From Tubulanus polymorphus (lineage: Eukaryota > Animalia > Nemertea), in assembly GCF_964204645.1 (NCBI RefSeq), contig NC_134027.1, positions 12,122,485 to 12,186,484 on the forward strand: 64,000 nt of DNA, read 5' to 3'. Shown here one piece after another: positions 34,657-60,000 of the stretch. A program made the position numbers and the translations under genes. How positions within the stretch are numbered: position 1 is the stretch's first letter; each line of letters begins with the position of its first letter. The notes beneath the pieces were generated by a model. It was not told the DNA's origin and searched no databases. It worked only from the letters and a program-made list of their open reading frames with translations.

Positions 34657-34849
34657 AGTTTGTATACTCATGATATCCTTATGATGTTCCACAATAATAA
34701 ATTGGATATATGTATAAATATTATGAATCAATTGACCTTAAGGAGGAGGATTTTTACCTACTTTGAAGAATTGGGGATTTTTACCGAGGGGATTTATACC
34801 GCTAACCGGTTTAGTGGGCTAGTAAATAATTTAGGATATCGAAACTTTT

Positions 34850-36912
34850 CCTGCAGTTTTCCTATTTCCAGATTCCATTTTCTCTTCTCAAAATCAAGAG
34901 TTTCCACCACATGAACTCATTTCGAGACATATTGATTCGCTTAATTTCATCTTGTGACAAATCTTGCGTATCGTAGATCTTCTGCATTTCATCTTTTTCT
35001 TGCATTGCTCGAACTATTTCCATTTCTAAACACAGTTCAAAAAGAGCGTTGATAAATTCAAACCTTCAGATGATATGATCTTCGATACATGGTGTTAGAT
35101 AGAAATATCATGTGATATATAAAGGGTCACATAGAGAACATGGATGCCTCGATGTGCATATTTTGAGTGAATTAAAAGCTATGTTTAAGGTTACAAGCTA
35201 TGTTGGGTAAGGGGTGGTTACATACCAATGTTTTCTTTTTGATGCACAAATCACGGAATTCTTTATCTTTTTCAAACTGTCTTCTATTGAGCTCTTCAGT
35301 CTGATCGGTCAGTTGTTTTAATTCGACTTGGTATTTATTTCGCGTGGCCGTCAGATATTCAAGATTATCCTGAATCATTTACAATATTGAAAACTCTATT
35401 AACTTGATCAGTTCAACGGTCATTGTTTAGGTTTCTTTCTCTCTTGAAGGAAATTGGTTCATTTTTCCCTCATTTACAAATTATCTGAGTTCTTTTTATT
35501 TTTCCAAGATATATAATACGAAATTCCCCGAGTAAATCTGCTGCAGGTGATTGGGGAAATTTCTTCACTTATCATTAAAAATGTTTTATTGATGTGATAA
35601 TTAGAATTCACTGGTTCATTCTCAAGATTGTTTGAGTCTTGTTTGAGTCGGACTCTTTCGATTTGTAGTGATTTAAAGTTCATCGGTTTATCATCGTGTA
35701 AACATTCTGTGAACATAAAATGATGAATTTTTAAGATACGCACAATAAACATTTAAATGGAAAAAAACATAAACTTGAAACTTACCTTGTTTTTTTCTGT
35801 AAAGTTCATCCTCCTCGACAAATTCACCTTTTCCATCCTTGAACGCCTTGTACGTATTGATGAAGTACTGATATCTAATCAACAATCATTCAACAGATAT
35901 CTATGAGGTGAATTGATATGAAGTTATTAAATTCACTAGAACCAAAATGATCTATGACTGGTCTTGAAGTATTACTAGCCCCAGGAGTTCTATCTAAAAG
36001 TTTTTTTTTTACGAACCAGTTCTTCAGTTTCTGAATCATCAAATCTATCATTTCTTGAGAACATCATTTTGAAAATATCGAATTGAAAAGATGACTTGAA
36101 ATAAAAGGCATAAAAAAAAAAAAGAATTTTTGTTGAACGACTAAATAAATAAAGAGTATATTGAATCTACACTTACTTCAATGTAATCACCGAGCCAGGA
36201 AAGTGCGCCGAGTAGGTGAGGCCAAACATGAGGTGCTCGCACAGTGAATAACATGTTCTTCGATATAAGAAATGGATACCCGAGATCCTTTAGCAGACGT
36301 GGTATCTGCTCTTCGTGTTTACTGTCTAGACGAAATTTGGCATCGACGATTTTCAACATGAACTGAAAAATAACGAAGAAATAAATCATTAAGTGATTTT
36401 CTATAAGAGGATATTTGAACGCGTAATAAATACCTAAATGATTTTGAGGAAATCTTTAGTAGTCGGAGAATGTAAGATCTTCACGCTGAGTTTTTTGCGA
36501 ATCACCTTTTTTCAGACAGAAACTGAAAAATAAATCAGAATGTAATTGAGAAAACTTTAATGACCGATCTGAAACAAACAGGAATTTGCAACACTAAACA
36601 TTACTGGATAAAGTTTCCACAGGTTTCTTTAGTTTGTATACAGATTTGAATTTGTTCATTTCCATTTTTTAACCCTCGTGTCAAATTCTACCCACGGAAC
36701 TGCGGAACTTGGTATTAATTACTAGGAGCATAGATGCTATAATTGGGTAATTAACAATTACCATCAATAAAGATTAAGAATTCTCGTGTGTTGTATGTGA
36801 TATATTTACCTCAATAAATCTTCTGATACTTAGTTCTTTAAAGGAGCGATCGCTGAGGTGTCTCGGATCTTTCATCGCGTCACTTTTAGATCTTCCATAC
36901 ATTCTACTACGA
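34850..36912 (-). pseudogene. NDC80: Kinetochore protein NDC80/HEC1, degenerate multi-exon copy
   Basis: Exon 36810-36912 gives MKDPRHLSDRSFKELSIRRFIE; next exon gives FLSEK..LSVKILHSPTTKDFLKI with frameshifts and a stop; exon ~36175-36363 gives EEQIPRLLKDLGYPFLISKNMLFTVRAPHVWPHLLGALSWL (Ndc80 CH domain); coiled-coil exons continue to ~34850. Confidence 0.82.
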
Positions 36913-36989
36913 CTGTTAATTCAAAATTTCAAATGTTACGGTTTTTTCAAATTGTCACCGCTGATGGTAAAGTAGGTAAAATATCAATG

Positions 36990-37080
36990 AGTAATTGGAA
37001 AAGTGGGCTTTCAGATCAGAGGACGAGAGGACGAGACACCACTCATCACCACAAGTAATTTCTTTTCCTAATAAATGGGA
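36990..37080 (+). repeat. Left terminal inverted repeat of the Polinton
   Basis: Perfect match to the reverse complement of 53254-53325 over ~72 bp; imperfect extension to the first ATG. Confidence 0.95.
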
Positions 37081-37400
37081 GATAGAAAAGCATTCTTAGC
37101 AACAATTAATAACAGAATAAAACCAGCAAAAAACAATTTGAAATAAAAAAGTTAGTTGATGTAACAAAAGAAATTGAACATAAAATATTGAAATTAGAAA
37201 AGATAGAAACTAAATATGGAGAGAAAGTATCCGCTAATTTAAGCTACTGTAATGTTAGTACATCGCGAGAATTTAAAGTATTTTTACCTGATAAATGGGT
37301 TTCATTGAGTACAGAGGAATTAAAAGATTTAGAAGGATTTAAAATAATCTATCATGGAAAAAATGAAGATGGCCATCATGATTTAGAAATTGTTGATTAA
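37075..37400 (+). CDS. Small Polinton protein, possibly an OB-fold ssDNA-binding protein; frameshift in an A-run at ~37130
   Basis: TAAATG start at 37075 joins ORF 37188-37400 (ETKYGEKV...KVFLPDKW) with a 1-nt shift; the fold assignment is a guess. Confidence 0.5.
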
Positions 37401-37561
37401 ATTTAAAAAAATAAATTAATAAAAATAATGAATATTAAGAATCCGAAATAACTTATCTGGACAATTTAATTGCTCCGCATAGATAGACAAAAGTAGTGAG
37501 ATATTCAATTAATATTCAATTAATTAAAAAAAAATTATTTTTTTGCTTTTTTTCTAAAATA

Positions 37562-37915
37562 TTAATCCATTTTTTTTATTGTCAATTTTGGAATTTCAGA
37601 ATTATTTTCATTTTTGATAGCAGTTGTTTCAGAATTATTAATATCATGAATTTTATTTGATTTCTTATACCAATTACACCCAATCAAAATGAATACAATT
37701 ACAAATCCAACTGTAAAATATAGACATTTATCAAATATTCTATTATTAGAAGGAGTAGAAATAACAATATTTTCACCATTTTTATTAACATTTTTATTAC
37801 TTATTTTTTCTTTTACAGCTTTTTTATATTCTTGTGATTTAATTCCTAATTGCCGAGACCATTCAATTTGTTTCTGTGATCTCGGTTTTTTCTTCACTTC
37901 TTCCACCTCGCTCAT
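37562..37915 (-). CDS. Polinton membrane protein, unknown function
   Basis: TAAATG start; one TM segment LYFTVGFVIVFILIG. Confidence 0.75.
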   Translation of the reverse strand: MSEVEEVKKKPRSQKQIEWSRQLGIKSQEYKKAVKEKISNKNVNKNGENIVISTPSNNRIFDKCLYFTVGFVIVFILIGCNWYKKSNKIHDINNSETTAIKNENNSEIPKLTIKKMD

Positions 37916-38438
37916 TTATTATAGAAATATTTTTATTTTCAATATTTGAAAATGTTATAACCCCAGTTGATAATAATGTCATAAATCCACCTAATTGAAA
38001 TGATAAATATCCAATCCATTTATTTAATTCAGTCATAACTAAATAATCATTTTTTAAATCGGAATATAATCTATTTTCATCTTCAATTGGTAGTATATAA
38101 TTACATAATTTACTATAACCTTTTACTACATTTTCTGATATCGCGTCATTAATTCTAGCTGTTCTCGCGGCTTCATAAATCTTAAATAATCTGATAATTT
38201 CATCTGATTTCATTGTATCTAATTCATTATAAGTTAAATTTTTACATTTTCCAGATGCTATTAATATTTCTAATTGATGTTTACAATAAAGATAATATTC
38301 ATAATTATTATTTGTTGTAACATTATTTAAAGCACCATCATCTGGAATTAATTTGTTTTCTGTTATTCCTAAATCATCTAAAGTTTTTTCAATTGGAACA
38401 TCACCATTTTTAGATTTTATTTTCATTTCACCTACCAT
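37863..38438 (-). CDS. Polinton protein with hydrophobic C-terminal segment, unknown function
   Basis: TAAATG start; WIGYLSFQLGGFMTLLSTGVITF. Confidence 0.75.
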   Translation of the reverse strand: MVGEMKIKSKNGDVPIEKTLDDLGITENKLIPDDGALNNVTTNNNYEYYLYCKHQLEILIASGKCKNLTYNELDTMKSDEIIRLFKIYEAARTARINDAISENVVKGYSKLCNYILPIEDENRLYSDLKNDYLVMTELNKWIGYLSFQLGGFMTLLSTGVITFSNIENKNISIINERGGRSEEKTEITETN

Positions 38439-38469
38439 TTATATAACAAAAAAATTATTTGTGATGTTG

Positions 38470-38742
38470 CAACTAGAATTCAACTAGAATGTTACTAGAA
38501 TTCAACTAGATTAACAAGCTAGTTGAAATATTGTTGTTTTTGTTTATTTCTTGTTAAATCTAGTTGATTTTTGTTCCAACTACCAATAACTCGAATTCAA
38601 CTAGAATGTAACTAGAATTAAACTAGATTAACAAGCTAGTTAAAATATTGTTAAATCTAGTTGATTTTTGTTACAACTACCAATAACTAGAATTCAACTA
38701 GAATGTAACTAGAATTCAACTAGATTAACAAGCTAGTTGAAT
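38470..38742. repeat. Non-coding CTAG-rich tandem/inverted repeat array inside the Polinton
   Basis: About 3 units of caactagaattcaactagaatgtwactagaattmaactagattaacaagctagtt. Confidence 0.85.
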
Positions 38743-39351
38743 TTAAATAAATTCATATTTAAATGGGTGTTGTAATCTAAATAGTAATTTTGATCTTTTA
38801 ATATTTTTCAACTTATCCATATATTCATTATGTAAATCATGTGGAATTATATCATTTTCCTCAAGTGCATTTTTCATCGATTTTCTATCTTTATTGTAGA
38901 ATAAAACTAGAAATCTAATGTTTTCTCTAAAGTCTTTAACAATTGAATTATATTTTTGATTTAAAACCCAAGTTGTTATCCCAAAATGTCTGCCAGAAAA
39001 AGCTAAATAGCATAACTCACTTTCTCTAACTTTTGAATCATGTAGACTAGCACAATCATCTATAATGAATAATGTATTTGATCCTTTATAAATATCAATT
39101 GCTATTTTAATACAATTATCTAAATTTTCTTCTACTGTTTTAGGATCTAATATAATAAATTTATTATTTCTAGTAATATTTCTATCATAAGTTTGATTAA
39201 ATTCATATGTTGGGCAAAATAATACTATATTATCAAAATAGTTTTCATAAACAGTTTCTAATAAATTTAATATAAAATAAGTTTTTCCACAATTTGTTAC
39301 GCCAGATATTAACATATTATGCGGCTCAAATATAAATAATTCTTTATTCAT
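38743..39351 (-). CDS. A32-like (FtsK/HerA) genome-packaging ATPase
   Basis: Walker A ISGVTNCGKT, Walker B LFIIDD, GRH motif, VLNQ. Confidence 0.92.
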   Translation of the reverse strand: MNKELFIFEPHNMLISGVTNCGKTYFILNLLETVYENYFDNIVLFCPTYEFNQTYDRNITRNNKFIILDPKTVEENLDNCIKIAIDIYKGSNTLFIIDDCASLHDSKVRESELCYLAFSGRHFGITTWVLNQKYNSIVKDFRENIRFLVLFYNKDRKSMKNALEENDIIPHDLHNEYMDKLKNIKRSKLLFRLQHPFKYEFI

Positions 39352-40477
39352 TTATATATTTTTAATTTTACTTGATAATATCCATTCATTGAATTTATCT
39401 GGCCATCCAACCCATTTTACTAAAGAATATTTTTTTCTTTTAATAGTTTTTGTTTTTAATACTTTTTCAATTTTATATTCTTGTTCTAGATTTTCAGTAG
39501 TTAAACTTAATTCTTCTTCGTAAAAGTAGCCATCAACTTCTTCACCATCTAAATCTTCTAATTTATAGACATATGGTTTTGTTGTTATTACCTTTTTTAT
39601 TTTATATATTTCTCTAGTAAAATTTCGATCGTATCCTTTATCAAATATCTTTTTATATCTTTTTATAACATTTTGACCAACTTTAAATTTAGGTTCACCT
39701 AAATCATCTACAAGAAATGCTCCATATAAATTATTCCAAACAATTTCAGCATTTTCAGGTTTTCTAGCATCAATAGGTTTCATTCCAATAGAAGAATGAT
39801 AAGAATTATTATATCCTTCTATCAATTTTGGTAAAACATCAATCCATTTAAAAGTATTATTTGCTGTAAAATATTTCCACATTCTTGTTCTTAATGTTCT
39901 ATTAAATCGTTCAACAACTGCTGCTTTTTTATCTGATATTGTTGAAAAATATCTAATATTATGATTGTCTAAGAGTTCATGAACAAGTGAATTATCAAAT
40001 TCTTTTCCATCATCAAATTGTATTTTTTCTGGTTTCAGTTTATCATCCGAAAGAAATTTTCTTAAAACATTTGATGTTTGTACAGCATCTTTTCTATAAA
40101 GTGGGAAGCTCCATACATAACGACTAAAAATATCAATTATATTCAATAACCACCAATAATCATCATTATCTTTCTTAACATTTTTCATATCAATTAAATC
40201 TCCTTGCCACTGTTGATCTACATAACTTACCATAGTTTTACGAGTTTTATATTTTCTAACAATTTTTTTATGTGTTGTGTATGTTGGTTGTTCTAACATA
40301 AATTCATTTATATCTTTATATTTAACTAAATTTTGTGGGATTATCTTATCTAATTTATCTTGTTTTACTTGACGCCATATATTTTTGGTAGAAGAAAAAG
40401 CAACCGAACTCTCAGGGTTGTAATATAAATTTCTTAAATATTGTTCTTTAGTATTAGGAGTTTTTTTTACCACCCAT
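39352..40477 (-). CDS. Retroviral-type (rve) integrase with C-terminal chromodomain
   Basis: WQGDLIDM, IDIFSRY, FDDGKEF, KAAVVERFNRTL, YNNSYHSSI, YKIEKVL..VKWVGWPDKFNEW; true start is probably TAAATG at 40477 with a 1-nt indel in the 40461-40468 homopolymer. Confidence 0.95.
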
Positions 40478-40507
40478 TTATATATCCTTAATTTTAACCT
40501 TATATTT

Positions 40508-41764
40508 CTAATATTGAACATTATCTAATTGTGAATTTACAATATCTAATTATGCGTCAGATATAATATAAATGTGCATTTTAAAATTTTTGATTCCTTT
40601 ATTCTTTGTCATGAATAATTGTATTCCATCTTTAGTGTTCTGTGATTTCTTCCCAGAACCATGTAATGAATTATCCTCTGTTGTTCTAAAATCTAACCAT
40701 AATGCATATTTATTACCGGTATAATAATCAATTTGATTAATGTTACAATTTTCAGATGATTTCACTTTTTCATTCATAAAATGTTTTCTAATTTCTGGCC
40801 ATTGATCAATCATTCTCATTCCTTGACAAAATATTTTATTTGCTATTCCTTCGATAGTTATTTCTACTTTTGTTATTTCAGGATTATAATAATTATCTAC
40901 CTTTATTGCTCCATTAGAATATGTTGCAATGGTAAAAAATATTAATATACCTTTAATAGATCTTCTTGGGAAGTTAATATTCTCATTAATTATTTCATCA
41001 TTTGCATTAATAGTTACAGTTTTAAATTTACTAATATAATCATATAATAATGAAAATCCTTGATTGTATTGAGTTTGAATTTTGCTAGCAATATTTTCAT
41101 TAGTTACTGTGTCATATTCTAAACATATATTCGATAATTTATAACCCATATCTTTAACAACGCTAGATAATACAATTTCATTTACAGGAGCAAATGTTAT
41201 CTCAAATATAATATCTTCTTGAATTGCGTATTTATATAAAGGTGCATTATTATTTATCAATTCAAAGTAATTATCAATTAATGGAATTTTATATTTGCTT
41301 CCATAAATCTTTTTAATCAAATTATCTACAGCATTAGTTACTATTGCGTCATTAGCTCCTGATCTTAATTTATTATGGTTTTCCGATTGAATACCCTGAA
41401 ATATCATATTATTTCTATTTTCTTTAGTTAACCATAAATCTTTATAATGCATAAATAAATTATAATCATCTAATGAGAATACTTTTTCTGGACCAATCTT
41501 TATTGTTAACTTTTTAATCAAATATCTTCCAACATTATCAACAACATAATTATTATCATTACCGGTTACTTGTATATCGGCTGATAATAAAATACTATTT
41601 GGAACATAAAAAGTATTTTGTGTTAATCGAGGAATTCTAACGTATAAAGTTTCATCAGGATTAATATTAGAAGGGTTATGAGTAATTATATGATGAGATC
41701 TTTCTGCTTTAATAGCATTAGATATTCTATGATTCTTAGAAGGATTGATATAACTCCCACTCAT
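40508..41764 (-). CDS. Major capsid protein (divergent double jelly-roll), premature TAA at 40550-40552
   Basis: ~417-codon beta-rich ORF next to the integrase and ATPase; reading through the stop gives IISDA*LDIVNSQLDNVQY; assigned from size, pattern and context. Confidence 0.72.
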
Positions 41765-41784
41765 TTATTTAACAAAAAAATTAA

Positions 41785-43209
41785 TTATTTATTTTTTATC
41801 ATGTTTACTAGCCCAAAAATAATTGCACTTACAACTGTAATTAAAAATAAAATAATATGTTCAGCAGCAAAGTTAATAATGTTTCCTGCAGATTTCAATA
41901 TGAAACCAACAATTGATGCAATAACTCCTGGTAATGCTGCAGCAGATTTTTTAGATAGTTCCCATAAATATTTTGCTAATTTCTTTAAACCATCCTTAAC
42001 TTTATCTTGTATAGAATTATTACCTGGGGGTTTATCTGGTTTATTGGGAGTAGGAGTAGATTTCAAAGCATTAGATATTGCTAAACCTATTGTTGTAAAT
42101 AACATAGTTACAGCTGTTAGAATTGAAAGAATTGTTATTCCTTCAAATTTAAATAATAATTCTATTCTATCTTTTAATGATATTTCAGAATTCGGTTTAA
42201 TCAACAAATCTTTAAAAATAACTTTTAATCTATTTATATTATAATCATATGATTTTAACAATAATTTAATTTCTTCTTTCTGTACATCTAAATTATCTTT
42301 TAAATTATTAATTTGTTTTTCTAAACGTAATTCTTTTTGCCTATATTCTATTTCATCAATTACTTGATGATCTAAATCAGACTTTAGTTGTTCTATTTCT
42401 TTATTTGCATTAGTTAATTCTTTTTCCAAATACATAATTTTTTGATCTCTTATACTTTTATTATGTGCAATTTTATCAGCTTCATTTCTTATACTAATAA
42501 TTTCTCTAATTGCTTCATCAGAAAATATATTTAAATCTTCTAATTGTTGATCTGTTGCATCAATTAATCCATTCGGTAAAAGTGTTTCAATTGAAACTTT
42601 ATTTGATTTAAGTTTACTAGTTTTGGAAGTTATATTCTGTTCAGATGTTGTTTCTGTTTCTGATTTCTTTTTGATTATTTCAAATAATTCATTAATTCTT
42701 TATTTAAATACGTCTATATCATTATCAGTTAATTCTTGTTTTATAACATCAGTTATTACATTACTATTACTAATTCTTTTAATTCTATCTGGATCTAATT
42801 TTCTCAAAGTTAATTTTGTTATTATTTTTTTTTTATAAGTGATATCAATATAATAATCATCTTTCAAACGATAATAACATTTACCATTATCTAAAAATTT
42901 TAATTGATCTGCTAAAAGTCCAACGTCTTCATCATTTATGTTAAGTTTAGATTTTTCAATTAAATCTTCTAATTTAGGTATTTTGTTTAAATTATCTAAA
43001 TCTTGTTTTACTAAACCTGGGTCTAAATTTTCAGGATTTAATTGTGATTCTGCATTTTTAATATAATCGGGCATATTTAAAGTATTATTATATCCTGGCT
43101 CATTACCGTCATTAGAACTTGTTTCACTAAAATCAGGTTGTTGTTCATCAGTTATGCCAGGTTCATCAAAAGGATCCATTCCAATATGTTCTCCACCTTC
43201 TACATCCAT
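41785..43209 (-). pseudogene. Coiled-coil protein with C-terminal TM helices, broken by an in-frame stop (~42700) and a frameshift
   Basis: ORFs 42700-43209 and 41785-42435 are bridged by an open frame ~42436-42680; a single TAAATG start at 43209. Confidence 0.7.
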
Positions 43210-43225
43210 TTATATAATAAAAAAA

Positions 43226-44524
43226 TTAAAATTTAAAATATAATATTCCTCCTATAACAATTCCTATATAAGTTAAAGCTAATTTAGTATTTTCATGTAA
43301 TTTATTATCATTATCAGTTTTAATTATATCATGTTGAATATCATCAGTTTTAATATTTTCTGTAGTATTATAATCCGGTTTAGAATCATTATTTAATTTA
43401 ATATTTTTAGTTTTAGTTTCTGTTGATTGAATACGTTTTTTATTTTTTTCACCTTCCATTAATTTTGGAGCAGTGATAATCTTTTTATTTATATCATTCA
43501 ATCCAAATGAATTATTTATTGTTGCGGTTTTAATTAGATTATTATAACCAATTATGTTTCCCATCTTTAATACTAAATCATTAGAAATAATAAATAGATT
43601 AGGGCCTATACAATAATTTAATCTAATATGTGATTTATCTAAATAATTTTGATATCTTACAATGTTTTCCGGAATCGATCTATTTTTATCATTATGAATT
43701 GAATCTTCAAATAATACTTTGAATTGTTTCTGCGCATCGAATGAAGTGTTATCATTTCCAATTATTGGGGATCTTGTTTCAACTTGCGCACCTAGAATAC
43801 ATATCAAATAAGTTCTAATAGATTGATTTATTCTTTGTATACCTGATTTTGTAAAACCTTCACCATTTTCTAAAATGAAATTAACCCAACCATTATTATT
43901 ATCAATGTTATAATTATGATAAGCTGAAATTCTATGCATATAATCAATTCTTTTTATTTCAAACTCTTCACCAACACCTTGCAATTTACCATGCGCTCTA
44001 AAATCGGAATTAATATTTATATTAAATTCATTACATATTTTATAAAACTTAGATAGATTAATATTATTATCCAATTCTTTAAAATATTTAGACCCGGGTA
44101 AAGGACATTCTAATTCATTTAATATTATTCTGATTTGAAAATATGTGTGAAATCTAAATATTGTGTGAATTAATTTTAAATCAGAATACTTCAAATTTTT
44201 ATCTAAGTTATTTAAATGATCATTCCAACTTATTCCGCATCCTGTTGTTGCACAATAAACAGCAAAATCTAATTGGTTCTGCCAATATTTCATATTAGAT
44301 TTTACTTTATATATATGATATTCATCTCGAGTAAAAGTAACTTCATATGTATTAAATATATTTTCCATTTTAGAAATAAAAAACTGTGATTCAGTAACAT
44401 AAATTTCTAAATTAGTTAATGAATTTAAAACTACATTTTTATATGTAATATTTTTTTTTAAATCTATTGCAGGAATATTATATTTAATTGATTTATTATA
44501 TTGGAAAGCTTTTGGAAACCCCAT
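43226..44524 (-). CDS. Polinton protein with C-terminal TM anchor, unknown function
   Basis: 432-aa ORF, TAAATG start, AVYCATTGCGISW motif, terminal ALTYIGIVIGGILYF. Confidence 0.8.
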   Translation of the reverse strand: MGFPKAFQYNKSIKYNIPAIDLKKNITYKNVVLNSLTNLEIYVTESQFFISKMENIFNTYEVTFTRDEYHIYKVKSNMKYWQNQLDFAVYCATTGCGISWNDHLNNLDKNLKYSDLKLIHTIFRFHTYFQIRIILNELECPLPGSKYFKELDNNINLSKFYKICNEFNININSDFRAHGKLQGVGEEFEIKRIDYMHRISAYHNYNIDNNNGWVNFILENGEGFTKSGIQRINQSIRTYLICILGAQVETRSPIIGNDNTSFDAQKQFKVLFEDSIHNDKNRSIPENIVRYQNYLDKSHIRLNYCIGPNLFIISNDLVLKMGNIIGYNNLIKTATINNSFGLNDINKKIITAPKLMEGEKNKKRIQSTETKTKNIKLNNDSKPDYNTTENIKTDDIQHDIIKTDNDNKLHENTKLALTYIGIVIGGILYFKF

Positions 44525-44540
44525 TTATATAATTAAAAAA

Positions 44541-44975
44541 TTAATAATTAACTAATTCTTTTAATAATTTATCTTGTTCTTCAACTGTTATATGGCCATT
44601 TAAATTTATTATATAATCTAGTGTATTCTTTAATTTATTAATTTCTTTTATATTAGTTTTAATTTTTTCTTTATTACTTTTTATATTTAATTTTGAACTT
44701 ATACCAGTTAAAACACTTGAACTTAATCCTAATACACCAATTGATATAGCTAAAGGTGTTAATGGACTGAATATTGCTAGAAATGTTATTAGAGAACTAA
44801 TTGTAACCGAACCACTTATAATCAAATAATATATAATTTTACTTTTTAAATATTTTTTCTTTTTTATCTTTAAGTCACTTTCAAATTCTAATATTTGTTT
44901 TTCTAAATATGTTTTTAATTTAGTTTTATTTATATCATGAGGAATAATATCAATATTATCAACTTTATCTTCCAT
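44541..44975 (-). CDS. Two-TM membrane protein
   Basis: TAAATG start; hydrophobic hairpin IIYYLIISGSV...AISIGVLGLSSSVL. Confidence 0.75.
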   Translation of the reverse strand: MEDKVDNIDIIPHDINKTKLKTYLEKQILEFESDLKIKKKKYLKSKIIYYLIISGSVTISSLITFLAIFSPLTPLAISIGVLGLSSSVLTGISSKLNIKSNKEKIKTNIKEINKLKNTLDYIINLNGHITVEEQDKLLKELVNY

Positions 44976-44995
44976 TTATTTAGCAAAAAAAATTA

Positions 44996-45418
44996 CTAAT
45001 TAGTAAACTTATAAGCAACAAATATAACAATAACTGTTCCACCTAAAATCAAAATTATTTCATATTTCTTCTGTTCATTACTTGGGGTATAATAATCTGA
45101 TAATTTAGGTTTGTATAGATGTAATTTTTCTTTATTGGTTTCCGCGTTATATAAACTCATTGCATCATCAACTGATTGAAAATCTCTGTGTGAAATCTTC
45201 TGATCATATAATTCTTTATTGATGTAATCCATATAGTTTTGTCTCTTTTCTCTATATTCTTCAGCTGCTTTATTGTATTTCTCTAATGCTAAGGTATGTC
45301 TTTTTTGTTCTGTAAATGAACCATTTTTATCAATATGCTTGAATAAATAACCACCACCAGTAAATGCTAAAGCGTTAACAATTGCCGATCCTATAATAGT
45401 TATAATTGCAGAAGCCAT
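44996..45418 (-). CDS. Membrane protein with N- and C-terminal hydrophobic segments
   Basis: TAAATG start; IITIIGSAIVNALAFTGG and IILILGGTVIVIFVAY. Confidence 0.75.
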   Translation of the reverse strand: MASAIITIIGSAIVNALAFTGGGYLFKHIDKNGSFTEQKRHTLALEKYNKAAEEYREKRQNYMDYINKELYDQKISHRDFQSVDDAMSLYNAETNKEKLHLYKPKLSDYYTPSNEQKKYEIILILGGTVIVIFVAYKFTN

Positions 45419-45442
45419 TTATTTAGTAAAATAATTACGCAT

Positions 45443-45664
45443 TTATATGGGAGGAATATATTTTTGTTTTTCCAAATAATCAATAGTTAAATTAGATAAA
45501 GTAACTGCTAATGTTAATTTTAAGAAATCATTTATATCAAATCTATCAACATTAACACTTCCCATTTTGAATACTTTTTTTAATACCATTGAATAACCAA
45601 CTGTTCCAACTGATAGTAATGCGCCATTATATAATCCAGTTATTATCCACTTATTATCACTCAT
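45443..45664 (-). CDS. Small hydrophobic Polinton protein
   Basis: TAAATG start; tightly packed with its neighbours. Confidence 0.65.
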   Translation of the reverse strand: MSDNKWIITGLYNGALLSVGTVGYSMVLKKVFKMGSVNVDRFDINDFLKLTLAVTLSNLTIDYLEKQKYIPPI

Positions 45665-45667
45665 TTA

Positions 45668-46021
45668 TTAATCAAAAAATTTACTATCTTCAAAATATTT
45701 AGTTATCTTAGTGATGATTATTTCAACATTTATTTTATTACTAGTTTCATTTGTATATATTTCAATTATTATTTTTTTAATATCATCGATGATAAAATCT
45801 TCATCTAATTCATAAAATCTTAAAGATTCTCTAATTAAATTAGTAATCTTTTCTACATTTAAAGTTTCTTTATCTATTGTTTTTTCATACTCAAATGTTG
45901 TTTCATTAGAAAATGCAATATTTTTAATATGTGTAATTACATCATTAATGTTAAATTTCATTTCTTTCTTACGTTTAAAATCAAAACCAAAACATATACT
46001 CGGTCCTACTGTTATATTCAT
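45668..46021 (-). CDS. Polinton protein, unknown function
   Basis: TAAATG start; tightly packed with its neighbours. Confidence 0.65.
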   Translation of the reverse strand: MNITVGPSICFGFDFKRKKEMKFNINDVITHIKNIAFSNETTFEYEKTIDKETLNVEKITNLIRESLRFYELDEDFIIDDIKKIIIEIYTNETSNKINVEIIITKITKYFEDSKFFD

Positions 46022-46037
46022 TTATATAGTGAAAAAA

Positions 46038-46796
46038 TTACTCTTTACATCTTATAACTAATTCATAAATTACGGGGAAATTATTTAAATCAATTAAGTG
46101 CCCATTATGATTTCTTATTTCTAATTTAAAATTATTAAATTGAGGAATACAAGGTTTAAAATCACATTCAGCTAAATTATAATTTATTTGCGTTCCAAAT
46201 TGTTTGACATTTTTCAATGGTAAAATATTTAATATACTAGAATGACAAATTGTATCTTTAGTTGCTTCAAATGTTTTTGTAGGATCGATTAAATTGCAAT
46301 AAATATAGAAATGTGTGTAAGGTATAATATTTGAATTACCGTCTACGTTTCCTGTAACAGTTTGTGGTTTAATTCCTAACAGTTTAGCTAAAGGTTTCCT
46401 TACCATAAATGCATGTTTGCTTTCATCATCTAACTTTATTTTGATTTTATCAGAACTATCACTTTTTATAAATTTAATTGAAAATTTATCTTCACTTTTA
46501 AGTTTTAATCGTGCTTTCCGATTAATTTCTTGGGCTAATGTTTCTAAATTATATAACCCTGGTTTTAACATTAGATAAAACCATTTATTTTTATTTTTCA
46601 TATGAATTGCAAAACCTCTATGTTCGAAAGTTTTATCCGATATATTATAAAAAGAATTACATAAACTTATATTTACTAATTTTAAATCTACACAATTCTT
46701 AAATTCTCTATTTAATTGAACTAGTAAATTATGTGATTTATAATTTGTAAGTTTTCTAGAATCAACAAATATTCTGTATTCTTTTAATTCTACCAT
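46038..46796 (-). CDS. Minor capsid (penton, single jelly-roll) protein
   Basis: IFVDSR..., NSFYNIS, LKPGLYN, FYIYCNLI, LEIRNHNGHLIDLNNFPVIYEL pattern typical of Polinton/virophage pentons. Confidence 0.8.
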   Translation of the reverse strand: MVELKEYRIFVDSRKLTNYKSHNLLVQLNREFKNCVDLKLVNISLCNSFYNISDKTFEHRGFAIHMKNKNKWFYLMLKPGLYNLETLAQEINRKARLKLKSEDKFSIKFIKSDSSDKIKIKLDDESKHAFMVRKPLAKLLGIKPQTVTGNVDGNSNIIPYTHFYIYCNLIDPTKTFEATKDTICHSSILNILPLKNVKQFGTQINYNLAECDFKPCIPQFNNFKLEIRNHNGHLIDLNNFPVIYELVIRCKE

Positions 46797-46864
46797 TATT
46801 TATAACATAAAAAAATTACCGCTCATCACTAAAAATCAATTTTAATAAAATTTTTCCTAAATAA

Positions 46865-48182
46865 ATGGATGAGAAGATAGCATGCGAAATTTGTGGTGAA
46901 CTTCTAAGAAAAAGTAATATGGCTCGACATATGAAAAAACATGATGAAAATTATAAACCCCCTAAACTAAACTGTCCAAAATGTAATAAATTATTCTCAA
47001 GAAATTATGTTAAAAAAACATTCAAAGAAGTGTAAAATTAATGGCGCAACGGCTAATGTTGATAGTAATGAAAGTAATAGTAATTCTGTTGAAGTTGAAC
47101 CTGAAGGTATTTGGAAAAGACCTTTCTTATTCTATGATAAGGATAATATAAAAGATCATATCTGTGAGCCTTGTCAAGTAAAATATAGCCCTGAAAATAT
47201 AGAAGATTGGGAGAATCATCAATTTCGTAAAGCACATATAGATAAAATTTCTAATAAATTTGAAACTGAATTCAATAAAAGAAAAGATAATTTATTAGAA
47301 AAAATAAAATATGAGAAAACGTTACCAGATAATAAAGAAACAGTTGAAAAGTTAGAAAAACAATATAATGAATTAACAAGAAAAACATATCATTGTAAAT
47401 ATTGTAAATTGATTATTAAAACAAGTAATTCAAATCTACATAATAGAACAATAAAACATAAAGAAAACGTAAGAAAATACCAGGAACTTAATGAAGATCT
47501 ATTACCAATAAATTATAAACGAAAATGTCCACAATGTAGTTATGCGACCTTAAGACAAGAAGGTACTGTGTTATTTTGTAATGAATGTGGATGGCAAAAG
47601 AATTTATGGAGTGAAGAAAAAACTAAAAATTTTCTCATAGATCCAAAATTAAATTATCTAGATGAAATTTTTAAAATATTTTCTATAGAAGATCATACAC
47701 CAGAATATATGCAATGGCTTGAAAAAATGAAAATAATAGAAAATAAAAATGGTGAAATAACTAAAAAAGATATTATAAAAACAATTATTCCGTCAACATT
47801 TAACACAAAACAAAAGAAAATGTATTTATATTTATTATTTAACGATTATTATGAAAAACCTAAATTAACAGAAGAAGATATGAAAAATATAAAAAAAATA
47901 TTCAAACAAATATTAATGTATCATTTGGAAAATAGAATAACAGATTCAATAAATTATGAATTCTTTTTAAATAAGATTGTAAATTATTTAAACCTAGATA
48001 TTATAATTCCATTTGATGAATTAACAAACAAAAAGAAACAAAGAGAGCGAGATGAAATGTGGAACAAGATAGAACTTTATTTAAATGAGAAAAATGAAAT
48101 GGAAGAAGAACCTAAACAATTAAATGAAAATGAAGAAGCCAATAGTGATTTCGAGAATGACGATATTGATTTTATGTTTTAA
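46865..48182 (+). CDS. Zinc-finger protein with C-terminal poxvirus A2/VLTF-3-like late transcription factor domain; frameshift in the A-run at ~47012-47018
   Basis: TAAATG start at 46865 (CEIC..HMKKH, CPKC); CPQC-x13-CNEC ribbon, KNFLIDPKLNYL, IKKIFKQI..SINYEFFLNKI..DEMWNKI match vaccinia A2 as recalled. Confidence 0.78.
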
Positions 48183-51100
48183 TGACCATAAGGTAATGTT
48201 TTTATACCATCATCTAAAATATGCCTTTTATCATCAAATGGATTCAAACTAGTTTTTTCAACTTCATTAATGTATATCTCGTGATATTCTGATCTTAAAC
48301 AATTCATTTTGTGTTTCATTACAATTGAGTTATATAAACACTTTATATAATCTTGAAATTCTATATGTTTATCAACCACATGTTTTGTTATTCCTTTTAA
48401 CTTTTTAGCTTCATGATCTTTTGTTCTATAACTATGCATTTTACTTCTTATCCCAACAAATTCAATCATTTCATCACCCCCTAATTCATCTTTAAACTTA
48501 CCAGGAATCTTTTTATTATCATTGCTAAATAGTTCATGATCTTTGGGATAATTGCTAAAATCAAAATGATGTTTTAATGTTTTTAAGTCTTTTGTTATAT
48601 CATTTGTCTTGATTTTTAGTATATACGCATCCGTATTGAAGCAAATTAATGGAAATCCACAGTTAAATAAACCATCTTCAGTTGATAAATCATAAACATA
48701 ATCTGATGGGTTATGTATTTCAAATAAATCTTTAACCTCTTCAGTTAAATCTTTTTCTGTGTGGCTTAGCTTAAAGCAATTTGGTTTAGATTTAATCAAT
48801 CCAATATTCATATTGAAGCCTAATGAATTACATAATATATTTAACCCTGATATAGCAACTTTTCCTTTCTGTGCAAAGGTTATCTTTTTATCTTTTGTAA
48901 ATTTTTTAGCACCATCTGCTGCATAGAATCCAATGAAGAACCATTTTCTTAAATTATTTTTTGCATTTAATACATAATCTGGAACTATCTTTTCTTTTGT
49001 TGAAGTATTACTTTTCACTATTGCATGAATATAGAATTCATCATTATATTTTATAGCAAAATCTTTAGGATTATTTATAAGTATTCTATAAACTGCTGAT
49101 GATTTCATAACATCCATGATTCTAAATGTTTTATGTGAATAAACTTCTTCACAGAATTTCTTAATTCTTTCTAATAATTTTAAGTCTTGATTGCATAAAT
49201 ACCAACAATATTTATTACCCCAAACATAATTATACACACCTGCTGAACCATCTCCCATGAAAAATCCTTTGATAAAATATTCTTTTTCTTCTAATGTTTC
49301 GGTTTCTATGTTATAAATATTATCAATTATTTCATCAAATGACATATGATTCATTCTTTGGAAAAATCTTTTATGTAATAATTCATCTCCAATTTTTATA
49401 TCAGTTGGTTTTATTTCATTACCATTTCGTTTAATTAAACTATGATCTTCTGTAACATCTACAAACCCTAATTTAGTTCTAACTCTATAAATTTTCTTAT
49501 TTGTTTTATGCCTAATAATATTCTTTAATTTTTTCCATCCATTTCTTGTCCAAACATCCATTAAACCATTTATTTGTATTAATTCTTTTTCACCATATGA
49601 AATATAACATTCATTTTGTTTTGGAATTATTTCTGAAATTCTTCTTACCAATATTTTATTATTACATTTTAATAATATTGGGGTGTCAGCTGTTACAGAA
49701 TCAAAATATAATATTTCAATATGCTTTTCCCCAAAAAGTGGTTGTAAAACATTATAATAAAAATCATACATTAATAATTTTGATACTTCTAAAACAGTTG
49801 AACCAATGAATATAGGTTTATCAAATTTCATTGACGTTCTTTTTAATTTAACTGCTGTTAAATAATCTTCAAATCTTTTATTTCCTAAATGTCTAGGACT
49901 TGATTGTAAATGTCTTAATCTTTCAGAATTATTTACTAATTCAATATCATTTCTATTTCTAATATTTTCACATGTTTTACAATAAAAACTATTGTTCATT
50001 AATTTAAAAAAATCTTTTTCAAAATCTGTTTTTGATATGGTACTCTGTTGAGTATTAAAATCTATATATTTTTCTAACCACTTCGATTGATTAAATTCAA
50101 TATATCTATGTACTTTCTTTAATTTCATTCCTTGTTTCAGATAAAATTTTAACATTCTATAATGAACAATATAATTGTATTTATTATTTTGAGTAAGTAT
50201 TAATTTTTCTGTAAAAACATGATCTTTCGGTTTTATTTTCTTCTGGTATTCACTTAAATAACTATCATCTACAGTTAAATGTTCTGGGCAATAAGGTAAG
50301 TTTCTTGTTTTAACCTTTATATTTTCAGGATATTCTAAATCAACTACAAAGAAATAACCAATTGGTGCTTCATCTTTTAAACTCGCAATTGCGCTTTCCC
50401 AATCAGTTTTATCATCATTTTCAACTTCTGTTAATATAAAATTTTTATATGGTTGAGGTTGCATCATTGCCCAACCATATAAATTATTGGTGTCAATATA
50501 TAATAATTTATATTAATCATTTGCTGTAAAATACCTATCTCCCATAACACCACTAATTCCACCTCTAATTGATTTTTCAAATAATAAAACCATATCTGGT
50601 TCTTTTAATAAATCTAATTCTACATTTGTATATTTTAAACCACATTGCCAGGTTAAACCAGGACTTGAATAACAATAACAAGGATCAACATTAAAATGAT
50701 TCAAATTAACTTCTCTAAATTTTTCAAATATGTCAGCCAATATCATAACATCTGATTTTAAATATAAATCAACTAATTCACCATGATTTTTCATCTTAAA
50801 ATGGTTCCAAATATTTAATTTTCTATTAAACACTTCGTCTTTCACATACTCCTCTTTTAATTGATCATAAAATTGATCTTTTAATAATTCTGTTACATTA
50901 AAATCATTGTGTGTTTTATAAAATGAATAAGGAATTGCGCCTTTATATCTCAATAATTTAAAATCTTGTTCATTTGGATAATAATATCGAGTTATAACAA
51001 AATCATTATCAACTAAACTTTTTGATAAATTATCTAATGAACTTGCTAGAAATCTATAAGAATCTAAAAATCTAATGCAACCAAATTGAAATGAAATATA

Positions 51101-53241
51101 ATTTTCAGATGTTTTAGCTAATAGTTTAAAATCATATTTTCTTACATTTACACCATTCATAGCATTATATTCTTCTATTTCTTGATTAATTGTACCCAAT
51201 TTCTTTGATAATTGTTTTATAAATAGATGGGTATCATAGCCTGATAAATTATGAAATAATATTGGTACGAAATTAACTTTCTTAGCTTGTAAATTGCAAT
51301 CTTCATGAGCAGCTCCACGATATTTTGAATTTAAATGATCATGATCTCTAACTTTTTTATCAAATGAATAAAAACGTTTTTCACAATAACAACAATGAGT
51401 TGCATAATTAAAATCAATTTCATCTTCTTTTGTCATAACTATTCTTTTATTTTTGTTTAATAATTTTGCAAAATCACTTTCTAATTCAATCATTTTATCA
51501 CAAAAAGCATTAACTACATTTTCACCTCTAAAAAAATATATTGACTTTCATATAATTCGGGATAATTTGATTTGATGTAAATTCCATAAGCAGCAGCTCT
51601 TTGATGAACTTTTTTAATTGTATTTATAATTGGTGGGTCTTGTATTGTGTCTTCATTTAATTCATTTCCTTTATCCATTGATTTTAATAATTGCTTTTTG
51701 TTATATATTTCTTTTCTATCTTGATCAGTTAATTCTTTATTCAACGATTCAAAATCCCCATAAATTACAAATGGAACAATATTCTTAAATTTATGATTAG
51801 TAAATTTCAATTTATAATCTTTTTCTGTTGGCATTATTAATTTGCAAAAATCTTTATTATCACATAATTCTTTATGTTTTAATAATGTATTCTCTGTCAT
51901 AAATTTAGATAAACATTTTCTACATAGATAAATTTTATGATGATGATCACTTTCTGTTCTAAAGAATAAATCAATTTGTTTTAACCACATATAATGTTCA
52001 TTTTCATCTTTTTTGTAATATAACAAATCTATAGCATTTTCATCATCATAATATTCTGTTAAATATAAAGCTTCCAATGTATAATCTTTAATATTTTCAC
52101 CTTTTGTCTTTGGTAATTGCATTAATTCAAATACATTTATTTTTAACTTATTAATTTTTTCTATTTTGGGTATCATTTTTATAGTTACTGGATATTGATC
52201 AATTTTATATAATGTTTCATATTTCCGATAATCTGTTATTCTACAAACATTTTCCTGTGTTGGATGTGAACAACTAATAATTGACCATAGAAAACATTTA
52301 TTATCTTCATTTTGAACATTTATTACTGCTTTTGTTGTAAATGGTAATTTAATATAAGATGATGCTTTAATATCCTTTTCTGTTGTAAAGTTTGAATCAT
52401 TTTTAAACATTTTATTACTTTTTGATGTTTTATTCCTTATTGTATTGTAAACATTTAAATCTAAATATATAATTTCATTCAATGTTAAGCCAGAACCCTC
52501 AAAATATCTTTCTTCAATATGACGTTTAAATTCATTGAATATTTTTTCTAACTTCTCTTTTATTTGCGTTTTTGAAATTATTTCTTCAGAGAGTGTTTGA
52601 ATATTATAATCCATTTTTTCTTCTGACTTTATAAAACTTACTTTCCCAGAGATACTAATTTTTGGATATTCAACATCTGTTATCAAATCTAGTATTTTTT
52701 CTATTATTTCATTAAATTTACTATAATCTTCTATTGTTGTACCTTTAAAAAATCTAAATATAATAGCTGCAGGACCAATTTTACTATGTAATGTTTCTAA
52801 AATTTCAATTGTATCTTTTATTTCTAGTGAATCAATATAATTTCTAACATTTTCCATGTAAGGTTTATTTGAAATGGATTTAGTTTTTGAATTTGGTTTT
52901 TTTACTTTTTGAGGTTTATCGTTAAAATAATCTTTTCCTAAAACATTATTACTCAAATTTTGGTGGTGTTTTTGTGATTCGAGATGTCTATTATAATTCC
53001 TTTTTACTATAAATTCATTACAAACTTCACATTTTATTTCATCCACATTCATATTTTCTAATCTTTCTTTTCTTTCATTGGAATTTTCTGGAGTTTCAAA
53101 ATCTATTACATTTTTTATATGATTTGCAGTTTTTTCATGTCGTGTTTTATTAGATCTATCCACGTATTTTTTACAATATGTGCAATAATATTGATTTTTA
53201 TTAACATTATTGTTTTCTGGCTGGTGTTCATTCTCCCCCAT
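48179..53241 (-). pseudogene. Protein-primed family B DNA polymerase (pPolB) with intein; one frameshift (~51530) and one in-frame TAA (50513-50515)
   Basis: YGDFES (exo I), FHNLSGYD, FLDSYRFL, YLKSDV, YIDTNNLYGWAM (motif A, read through the stop), KLMNNSFY.K (motif B), YFD/TDA (motif C split by the intein), GKFKDE, KLKGI, DDKR. Confidence 0.95.
48635..49699 (-). mobile_element. Intein (355 aa) with LAGLIDADG homing endonuclease inserted in pPolB motif C
   Basis: YFD|SVTADTPILL...VTEDHSL (block B TxxH)...FIKGFFMGDGS...FFIGFYAADG...YVYDLSTE...LICFN|TDA; removing it restores YFDTDA. Confidence 0.95.
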
Positions 53242-53325
53242 TTATTAGGGAAAAAATTACTTGTGGTGATGAGTGGTGTCTCGTCCTCTCGTCCTCTGAT
53301 CTGAAAGCCCACTTTTCCAATTACT
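53236..53325 (-). repeat. Right terminal inverted repeat of the Polinton
   Basis: Reverse complement of the left TIR; followed by TSD TCAATG. Confidence 0.95.
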
Positions 53326-53337
53326 TCAATGAACTAC

Positions 53338-54194
<857 letters not shown>

Positions 54195-57093: not shown

Positions 57094-60000
57094 ATGCCAC
57101 GTAAAACGAAAAGGCTTAAACAATTGTGCAGTGCCAGACAGACAGCCAAGGTATTAATTGTAATCTAGTAATAATATATTTAATTAATAAGCATTATTAT
57201 TCATTTTTTTTTAGACTTCAAAACTACACTTGATATTTTGGTTCATACTCCGCAACTATGTAAATGATATTAAATTTAGTTGCATTCTCTTGTAGGTTAA
57301 GGCACATACAGAACCAGAGCCGATAGCCAGCGATGCCAATCCATTGGAGTATCATCTCCACAAACAAAATGAGACTGAGGAGTATCCTCTCCCTAATAAA
57401 AAAAAGGAGTGTGTGGAGTATCCTCTCTGTGAAAAAAAGGAGTGCTTAAAGACATGCTCAAAGACATGCTTAAAGACATCTAAAGATTTTTGCTTGCCGA
57501 AACTCGTGAATGTATCTGATGCTTCTTCCTCAGAGAAGTGTATTAATACAGATAAATTCAGTAATGTAAGTTCAGAAATTGTTTCGAGATTCTCACCTTA
57601 TGCTATGTGCGTGAGAGGTCATTTTCACCAAGGTGATACAAAGTTATTTAGTGCATTATCAGTTGGAAACCAGTGTACATGTAATGCATTAGTCAGTCTT
57701 TGTAAACTACCATCTTTGAGTAGGGTAACAGCTAATGATATTGACCAGGTCCTCTTTCAAGGTGACTCTTTGTACATTAGTGTCAGAATGAATCAGTCCA
57801 ACAGATATTTAAGTTTTGATGAACTGCCATTATTTATACCAGTTGATAGACCTAAGTACAGAATAAATAGGCTTTCTAGCTACTATGTGAGTTATGACAA
57901 CATAGAAAAGGCACATGGGATATTTCATTCTCTTTGTGCTGCTATAACTCAATCATTATCTGATTCTATAACGGTTCTTGTCATGATTGGTGAATTTGCA
58001 ATAGCAATATACAGTTTAAGTGGAATGTATTTTGTATTTGATTCTCATAGTCGAGACAATTATGGAAACTTTGTTGATGACAGTACAGGTACAGCAGTTT
58101 TACTAAAGTTTCCTAACTTGGATGAAATAAAGAAGTATTTGAGATATTATATTTTAACCTGCTGCAGTCAACAGCATCGTTCTTGTGAATTTTTACCGAT
58201 CAAAATTGAAAATGTCGAGGAGAGTAAAAATGAATCTAGTCTAGCAAATTATGTATTCGATCAGAAGATAAAAAGACAGGAGTATATTCGTCTGTATAAG
58301 CAGAAACAGAGACAAGATGAGGCATTTAAAACAAATGAAAGAACTTGTAAACATAAAGCTAGAATGATCCCTGAGAAAAGAGCGAGTGAACAGATCCAAG
58401 GTAGACAAAGTAAGCAAAGAGCTAGAGCGATACCTGAAAAAAAAGCAGCTGATCAGCTTAGTAAGCAAAAAGCTAGAGCGACACCTGAAAAAAAGGCAGC
58501 TGAACGAATTCACAGTAGATTAAGTAGGCAAAGAGCTAGAGCGATACCTGCAAAAAAAGCAGCTGAACACCTTAGTAAGCAAAAAGCTAGAGCGACACCT
58601 GAAAAAAAGGCAGCTGAAAATATTCACAGTAGATTAAGTAGGCAAAGAGCTAGAGCGATACCTGCAAAAAAAGCAGCTGAACAGATTCACAGTAGATTAA
58701 GTAAGCAAAGAGCTAGAGCGATACCTGAAAAAAAGGCAGCTGAAATGATTCACAGTAGATTTAGTAAGCAAAAAGCTAGAGCGATTCCTGAAAAAAAGGC
58801 AGCTGAACAGATTTACAGTAGATTTAGTAAGCAAAAAGCTAGAGCGATTCCTGAAAAAAAGGCAGCTGAAATGATTCACAGTAGATTAAGTAAGCAAATA
58901 GCTAGAGTGATTCCTGAAAAAAGAACAGCTGAACAGACTCTGGACAAATTAAGGAAGCAAAAGAAACGAAATGAAAGCAGTTTCAGACAAAATGAAGTCA
59001 AACAAAAACGAAAGACTAGAGAAAGTGACCTATATAAAGAATTTGAAAGAGAAGCTAAAGCCGCAAAAAGAGCATTATTTAGAGAAAATGAAATAAATTT
59101 TGCGAATGCAGAAGATATCAGCTCTCAGTGTTCGACAAATTCGAATTTTGCTACCAAGCGAAAATGTGATTTAATGAAAGTCATTGATAAATTTCATGAA
59201 AAGATTTCAATTGGTCCAATATATGTGTGCACATGCTGTCACCAGACCTGGTTCCAACATTCAGCACAGAAATCTTCATTATTAACCTCTAAGTTATCTG
59301 ACAAACTAAAAGAAAAATGTATTACTGGAAAGATTTCAGTTAATGATGAACAATGGCTGTGTGTAACATGTGCAGAATCATTGAAAAAGAATAATGTGCC
59401 AAAGCTATCTGTGGCCAATGGATTGTCATTCCTGGAAAAACCAAAAGAATTGGAATTATTTCTTAGAATTCCTTTTATGAGTTTGTATGAATTACCGAGA
59501 GGTGGTCAATATCAGCTGCAGGGATCTGTTGTGAATGTTCCAGTTGACATTGCTCCGACTGTTCAGTCATTGCCAAGAAATGTTGACACAGCTGCTACAG
59601 TTCCAATAAAGTTAAAACGCAAGCTCAGTTACAAAACAGCAGTATTACAACAGAATGTTAGGCCTTTAGCTGTATTAGCTGCTCTACACTATTTGATGAG
59701 AACCACTCTGTATAAAAATGCAAACATAAACATTGATGAGAACTGGTTGAACACAGTTTGTGAAGAGCAAGGTATCATACCACCATCTGAACCTGAAAAT
59801 GATTATGCCAGTGATAGTGATTCTGATGCTTTTAGTGAAATAGACCCAGATGAGAATCCAACAGGAAATCAGGATACTATGTTAGATGAAGCAAGCATTG
59901 ATTCTGTAAGGGTTTTGACATATGCTCCAGGTGAAGGTCAGAAACCATTGAGTCTGTTCCAAGATAAAGATGCCGAATATTTATCATTTCCCACAATATA

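Follow-up and report, generated by a model that had tools for sequence, protein, structure and literature searches.

The 64,000-nucleotide stretch of DNA considered here, referred to below as the window (positions 12,122,485 to 12,186,484 of contig NC_134027.1, assembly GCF_964204645.1, from the nemertean Tubulanus polymorphus), carries a Polinton of 16.3 kb at positions 36990-53325 whose genes open with a start signal of the poxvirus late type. This copy spans the full extent of the element, yet is not intact; it is a decayed member of a multi-copy, protease-less Polinton family. Its intact ancestors probably, though far from certainly, relied for their transcription on a co-infecting pox-like virus and its RNA polymerase, which would make the family an integrated satellite of that virus. 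We regard this as the most economical reading because the element has no RNA polymerase of its own, leaves no room for the leaders of RNA polymerase II transcripts, places T at position -3 of its starts, and encodes a factor expected to work on a viral polymerase. A Pfam scan of 19 open reading frames (ORFs) of the window returned no RNA polymerase family, and a search of all six frames found no DxDGD motif, in agreement with the original prediction, which had been made from the bare sequence and had described the element as lacking a polymerase.

The start signal and its inheritance

TAAATG stands at 14 of the element's 15 gene starts, the remaining start being TAAATAATG. A run of at least four T residues ends 5-7 nt before TAAAT at 12 of the 15, and T occupies position -10 at 13. 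The motif itself served to choose two of these starts, those of the integrase gene and of the broken gene at 37075; the other 13 are the first ATG of their ORF, and among them TAAATG is present at 12. As a background, 52 of the 657 ATGs in the element (7.9%) are preceded by TAA, and a T-run accompanies 4 of the 38 internal TAAATG sequences. Each terminal repeat has an inward-facing copy of the signal at its end. The original prediction had called the T-run/TAAATG signal uniform, and this part of it did not stand: at the ATPase and integrase starts an A-rich core replaces the T-run.

According to two sources (PMC5294985, PMC11980589), a vaccinia late promoter is built of a core rich in T, a spacer of 5-7 bp and the sequence TAAAT(G/A), with T conserved at the tenth base upstream; each of these recurs in the element at the frequencies given above. 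For a direct comparison, 84 distinct TAAATG starts were gathered in 24 viral loci, of which 23 carry A2 and two were confirmed by Pfam as poxvirus. In these starts T peaks at -10 to -8, and in the element's clade, more strongly, at -11 to -9.

The signal also has a phylogenetic distribution. Of 121 confirmed relatives, 80 were retrieved from metagenomes, and a tree could be built from 43 rows with sufficient capsid sequence, the window included. The window's capsid clade comprises 12 rows (support 100/99) ranging from 19 to 44% in G+C content (GC), and TAAATG is found at 38 of its 44 conserved starts. By comparison, TAAATG is found at 0 of 106 starts in 25 other tree rows, and at 19 of 21 in six further rows belonging to three lineages. 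It is retained in relatives that are 50-75% identical in capsid sequence. A signal this frequent over so broad a GC range, and absent from the 25 other rows, is not a by-product of AT-richness, and that explanation was rejected. The start signal is inherited across the capsid clade, and the poxvirus late-type architecture claimed in the original prediction is borne out by both the match to vaccinia and this inheritance. Over all loci, TAAATG occurs at 64 of 71 starts in one group and 4 of 133 in the other, the groups having been drawn after the counts were seen and seven near-duplicates excluded.

Other lineages carry other signals. TATA lies within 16 nt of the ATG at 54 of 133 starts, compared with 28 in shuffled sequences. 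In loci L012 and L017 a T-run is located 10-14 nt before a TATA close to the ATG at 16 of 20 starts (2 of 21 in L018, L022 and L024), a pattern resembling the late promoter of African swine fever virus (ASFV) as given in the accessible text of PMC5294985. L065 shows a third upstream pattern over the whole locus: TTTAAAAA some 25 nt ahead of a start rich in A. Among giant viruses, between a third and a half of the gene starts in loci L142, L148 and L149 have TAAATG or TAATAATG-like signals.

Two further explanations of the signal were tried and rejected. Stop-start coupling fails because an upstream stop is used by the ATPase start only, the others lying 3-24 nt or more away and three having no upstream ORF, and a trans-splice acceptor fails because the T-run is not followed by AG. 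The poxvirus early terminator T5NT is mildly scarce within genes (12 seen, 18 expected), but it is scarce in all seven groups compared and is thus not diagnostic; AATAAA and CpG counts do not separate the groups cleanly.

The A2-like factor and the choice of polymerase

The second line of evidence is a transcription factor-like protein that carries zinc fingers, a zinc ribbon and a C-terminal VLTF3/A2-like domain. Scanned alone, the C-terminal 144 aa of 47007-48182 match PF04947 (E=5.5e-6; 26.6 bits, cut-off 25), a match missed by the whole-ORF scan, and the top ESM Atlas matches of the factor are VLTF3 clusters. Residues 5-197, from the zinc ribbon to the C-terminus, align with poxvirus A2 at 21-27% identity, whereas a comparison with one non-pox VLTF3 gave no pairwise match. 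When viral contigs were scanned with a 10-residue motif taken from the window protein, 117 loci were returned, of which 38 were pox A2 and none a non-pox VLTF3; the other 79 were mostly short chance ORFs. With its Pfam match above the cut-off, its zinc ribbon aligned with A2 and its A2-type motif, the factor of the original prediction is confirmed as VLTF3-like.

In a 31-row tree, for which the pox rows were selected by the motif and entomopoxvirus, egovirus and asfarvirus factors were left out, a long branch leads to the factor, and its sister group is made up of 15 pox A2 rows (96/98). The spacing from zinc ribbon to motif is 141 in the factor, 144 in 14 pox rows and 148-165 in 11 others. 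Together these comparisons give moderate support to a pox-side origin of the factor, a placement that leans on the 10-residue motif. Shared-word homologue searches and a fold search with the A2-like domain were empty and no PDB match was found; its single-sequence model was poor, with a predicted local distance difference test (pLDDT) score of 55.7.

If a pox-like helper is assumed, a sequence of steps can be proposed. The element would remain silent in the nucleus until infection, whereupon the helper's late-transcription proteins would reach it. RNA would start within the AAA of TAAATG and gain a non-templated 5' poly(A) leader; poxvirus A-leaders are also mentioned in PMC12722222. The integrase, polymerase, capsid and ATPase would then excise, copy and package the element, and its own A2-like factor may serve to recruit or divert the helper polymerase. 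Host defence would be a further step beyond the satellite reading.

A number of findings weigh against this reading. The element's signal is more stereotyped than that of the poxviruses themselves, the full T4 run being present in just 13 of the 84 poxvirus TAAATG starts. With the 10-residue motif masked or removed, pox and non-pox profiles score the factor about equally, at 9.0 versus 8.9 bits and 14.3 versus 11.7; with it removed, identities are 16-22% to pox and 15-24% to non-pox proteins, and the factor, on a long branch, joins neither group. VLTF3-like genes are present in L012, L017 and L044 too, all of which are without TAAATG and whose VLTF3-like proteins do not group with pox A2, and a VLTF3 gene is already known in some Polintons, according to the portions of PMC11131425 available. 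The same portions report that coral Polintons are expressed in control colonies. A promoter-pattern scan of viral contigs for a helper genome yielded 28 loci, none pox-like or Polinton-like. Some non-pox giant viruses have TAAATG at 6/13, 5/16 and 4/9 starts, and the element differs from the Polinton-like viruses (PLVs) that accompany entomopoxviruses, as set out in the last section. Finally, the access of a cytoplasmic polymerase to a nuclear provirus is a weak point of the proposed mechanism.

The polymerase intein belongs among these findings. It is an insertion relative to the polymerase of an intein-free relative, and among the best 150 of its 2116 relatives, one shares a Polinton extein (72% for the intein, 84.5% for the extein); the other 149 have exteins unlike the element's, mostly in YGD/TDS family-B contexts. 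Relatives in viral loci fall in giant-virus bins in 17 of 37 cases and in no recognised poxvirus, and T-run/TAAATG is found at 0 of 145 ORFs. Among the contigs of the DNA runs, no joint skipping exactly the intein was seen among 15 of 74 joints. The intein, which the original prediction described as resembling those of nucleocytoplasmic large DNA viruses, does have relatives in giant-virus polymerases; it shows that there was contact with viruses of this large kind, gives no pointer to poxviruses, and weakens the pox link.

These same data bear on the alternative that the element is a satellite of a large DNA virus other than a poxvirus, an irido-, asfar- or egovirus-like helper with late promoters ending in TAAATG, which we consider unlikely. 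The intein is shared with non-pox giant-virus polymerases, the three giant-virus loci with the TAAATG fractions given above carry genes for PCNA and AAA ATPases or their relatives, two clade members encode a deoxynucleoside kinase, the L012/L017 promoters are ASFV-late-like, and our literature searches found no poxvirus of nemerteans on record. What counts for a poxvirus instead is that the giant-virus motif floats (TAATA, TAAAA or TATA before the ATG) and has no fixed T-run spacing, and that among the 117 loci the factor's motif occurs, within the VLTF3 family, only in pox A2.

A different possibility, in our estimate quite improbable, is that the element is autonomous in the nucleus: TAAATG would act as a compact TATA/initiator for the host's RNA polymerase II, which the A2-like factor might redirect. 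In favour of this, several starts contain TATATAAA. Against it, a TATA-like run directly abuts the ATG in several starts, so that RNA polymerase II would begin inside the ORF. Among head-to-tail spacers, 8 of 11 are 0-24 nt long, too short to hold 5' leaders or allow 3' processing. In animals, T is an unfavourable Kozak base at -3, a position at which a poxvirus A-leader would supply A. The family's own VLTF3-like factor is present across promoter types, which speaks for this alternative; its gene, however, has a late-type start itself and would be unable to set the cascade off. Within the genes AATAAA shows no depletion (74 seen, 69 expected), although most other clades behave likewise. Also in favour of nuclear transcription are the coral expression just cited and the title of a reference in the accessible part of PMC5294985, which has TBP targeting vaccinia intermediate and late promoters.

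Dependence on a pox-like helper, as the original prediction had proposed, accordingly keeps the support of the promoters, the A2-type motif, the lack of a polymerase and a protease, and the nemertean host, and loses that of the intein and of the VLTF3 distribution. A broader proposal, which we regard as possible but somewhat doubtful, is that a widespread animal Polinton lineage consists of satellites of large DNA viruses whose promoters record their helper, here an undiscovered poxvirus lineage of marine worms whose polymerase the A2-like factor would divert, and asfarvirus-like viruses in the sister clades. If a pox-like helper is indeed responsible, such elements could be an inherited antiviral defence in animals, as mavirus is in a protist, and pox-like viruses would be predicted in ribbon worms. 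A fixed pox-type signal offers a direct test of the way in which animal Polintons are transcribed and of any need for a helper, and Polinton promoters may, this work suggests, serve as a record of the large viruses that infected an animal lineage.

The element, its copies and its surroundings

The element is identified as a Polinton by its protein-primed DNA polymerase B (pPolB), rve integrase, A32/FtsK ATPase, AG...CT termini and 6-bp target duplication (TCAATG on both flanks), and weakly by its capsid gene. Its terminal inverted repeats, 75 nt each, are 99% complementary, about 1 in 75 positions differing. GC is 23.7% in the element compared with 39.2% in the left flank, so that the extreme AT-richness noted in the original prediction is real, and ORFs span about 93% of the element. 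Its features, and the host exons beside it, are as follows.

34773..36917, - strand: host, downstream exons of a decayed Ndc80 duplicate (Ndc80_HEC, E=4e-19)
36984..36989, no strand: left target-site duplication (6 bp), same letters as 53326-53331
36990..37064, + strand: left terminal inverted repeat; inner end leads into an inward-facing T-run/TAAATG, with TAAATG at 37072
37075..37400, + strand: broken small gene without a function label (71% identity to L001:125-469; no Pfam match)
37562..37915, - strand: small conserved gene with a hydrophobic stretch and TAAATG start (ORF, relatives, start survey)
37863..38438, - strand: conserved family gene, 191 aa, with a T7 run and TAAATG start (relatives in 22/80 loci)
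38470..38738, no strand: non-coding 97-bp tandem repeat of 11-bp units (repeat scan)
38743..39351, - strand: A32-type packaging ATPase, TAAATG start with A-rich core (Pox_A32, E=4e-13)
39352..40477, - strand: rve integrase with chromodomain, frameshift near the 5' end (rve, E=3.5e-10; Chromo, E=9e-4)
40550..41764, - strand: major capsid protein gene, likely double jelly-roll (Capsid_N, homologues)
41785..43209, - strand: conserved gene with C-terminal hydrophobic helices, split by the stop at 42700-42702 (one 485-aa L001 ORF spans both parts)
43226..44524, - strand: conserved 432-aa gene (in 15/80 related loci)
44541..46021, - strand: four small genes (144, 140, 73 and 117 aa), all with T-run/TAAATG starts, three with hydrophobic stretches
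46038..46796, - strand: likely minor capsid (penton) gene, 252 aa, TAAATAATG start (size and Atlas neighbours)
46865..48182, + strand: zinc-finger protein with zinc ribbon and VLTF3/A2-like domain (~47508-48125), T5/TAAATG start (Pfam, Atlas)
48179..53241, - strand: protein-primed DNA polymerase B in three ORFs (DNA_pol_B_2, E=4e-10; Endonuclease_7)
48635..49699, - strand: 355-aa intein with LAGLIDADG endonuclease at polymerase motif C (domain match; intein-free relative)
53251..53325, - strand: right terminal inverted repeat (repeat comparison)
53326..53331, no strand: right target-site duplication (6 bp), copy of the left one

About seven breaks, in about six genes, interrupt this copy: two in pPolB, and others in the integrase, the end of the capsid gene, the gene at 41785-43209, the zinc-finger/A2-like gene and the left-end gene. 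The pPolB ORFs, collinear with the 1176-aa polymerase of L022, are separated by a frameshift near 51514-51547 and an in-frame stop at 50513-50515, with the start signal sitting at the inner end of the right repeat. The zinc-finger gene has a frameshift near 47007-47035, and the capsid gene an in-frame stop about 11 codons before the end seen in relatives. The claim of a complete element is right as to ends, target duplication and extent; the in-frame stops and frameshifts, which the original prediction did not mention, mean that the copy is not intact.

The capsid gene has 128 homologues; Capsid_N is matched in 17 of 34 aligned members with a best E of 7e-4, below the Pfam cut-off, and a sequence comparison with PDB gave no match. 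A search of viral contigs with the capsid alignment found nothing, and one of prokaryote genomes a single locus. Several Bartonella genome records include, on short contigs, the P0046 cluster, whose capsid shares 54% identity with that of the window; this is probably animal DNA carried into those assemblies, and it hints that the clade also lives in non-marine hosts. The 252-aa penton candidate scores 0.98 in the Atlas to a viral cluster without a name, the commonest phylum of which is Preplasmiviricota. The 432-aa protein, the largest unassigned, has no match in sequence, and a model of it with a confident core (pLDDT 68.5) gave no Foldseek match at E<=0.001, no VIA match at Z>=5 and no polymerase fold match. 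The 144-aa small gene matches SLATT weakly. No protease family was found among the 19 window ORFs or 54 accessory ORFs of relatives, several of which are without a label. A deoxynucleoside kinase gene, absent from the window copy, is present in two TAAATG-clade members (L001:10340-10981 and L006:2898-3380), and that of L001 matched one distant viral locus. The repeat at 38470-38738 is the element's only long non-coding stretch and shows partial inverted symmetry.

As to the host site, an upstream Ndc80 exon lies at about 53340-53458, so that exons flank the element on both sides. The flanking exon is 98% and 91% identical to two T. polymorphus NDC80 proteins (two matches among four candidates), which upholds the earlier claim of a non-insect invertebrate host and names it a nemertean. 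An exon map shows the exons to be frame-broken relative to the full-length protein, and the insertion site is thus intronic, within a decayed Ndc80 duplicate.

The family is present in three DNA runs of one study, in which 4014, 970 and 1197 contigs aligned to 46800-53440. Sister contigs range from 99% or more to less than 90% alike, and some have depths 5-28 times those of the flank contig. These contigs point to many copies without counting them, and the assembly itself may derive from one of the runs. In a further run, possibly of RNA, no contigs aligned. In run X1, 1201 of the 4014 aligned contigs are at least 99% alike, which, together with the single difference in about 75 positions between the repeats, suggests recent spread. 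A relic, in which the ancestor used a pox-like helper and the family in the worm is now transposon-only or dead, would fit the roughly seven breaks and the divergence among sister sequences, but the evidence of recent spread makes it very unlikely, as does the retention of the signal, both at 14 of 15 starts here and in relatives with 50-75% capsid identity.

Elsewhere in the window, 245 perfect CTG units occupy 53459-54194, within the first coding exon of the Ndc80 duplicate and about 130 bp from the element's right end. A 2009-codon open frame followed by a helicase-like ORF lies on the + strand at 57296-63885, which we take to be possibly a Helitron-type element, and the ORFs at 26000-29080 resemble what is presumably a Bel/Pao-type retrotransposon.

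Comparison with known systems

Among the closest known systems are the Mavericks/Polintons and adintoviruses (Polintoviricetes; PMC8502044), which share with the element pPolB, rve, the A32 ATPase, capsid genes, AG...CT ends, a 6-bp target duplication and residence in an animal genome. The element differs from them in its short 75-bp ends, pox-type starts, A2-like factor and pPolB intein, and in that the adenain/Ulp1 cysteine protease, a trait of Group 1 Mavericks and adintoviruses, was encountered neither in the window nor in the accessory ORFs of its relatives. Stony-coral polintoviruses are likewise marine-invertebrate Polintons, some with a VLTF3-like gene, going by excerpts of PMC11131425; the word 'promoter' does not occur in that paper, which holds no promoter analysis.

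The PLVs AHEV_PLV1/2 and CBEV_PLV1, found in entomopoxvirus occlusion bodies, are also Polinton-like and proposed parasites of poxviruses. As the available sections of PMC11296320 describe them, they are about 12 kb long, reside in insect occlusion bodies, encode a protease and a phospholipase, and either carry a tyrosine recombinase or lack an integrase. By contrast, the window element is integrated in a nemertean, has an rve integrase and shows none of this combination of protease, phospholipase and absent rve, its link to poxviruses running through its promoters. The main text of PMC11296320 has zero occurrences of 'promoter', 'TAAATG' and 'VLTF3'. Short-motif searches of two supplements, that of PMC11296320 among them, found nothing, and the capsid lineage is unplaced among named Polintons.

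Mavirus with Cafeteria roenbergensis virus (CroV), and Gezel-14T with Phaeocystis globosa virus (PgV), offer a parallel: small integrating DNA viruses without an RNA polymerase that use a large virus's promoter motif. From what is accessible of the two preprints, mavirus has promoters matching the late promoters of CroV, which induces the provirus (10.1101/068312), and Gezel-14T is a further precedent for helper promoters (10.1101/2022.07.28.501842). These viruses have protist hosts, known mimivirid helpers and shown dependence, whereas the window element has an animal host and a helper that is inferred only.

With vaccinia itself (PMC5294985, PMC11980589, as excerpted) the element shares the T-rich core, the 5-7 nt spacer, a TAAATG overlapping the start, and a zinc ribbon plus VLTF3 domain with the core motif. 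It differs in having one factor, fused to extra zinc fingers and 21-27% identical to A2; no A1, G8, polymerase or capping enzyme was found in it. No paper on pox-type promoters in animal Polintons was found, a weak negative given a crude search ranking and a coverage that takes in few subscription journals. Set beside these systems, what is new here is the nemertean host, the clade-wide inheritance of the start signal, the A2-type motif, and the presence of a second, asfarvirus-like promoter type in sister lineages.

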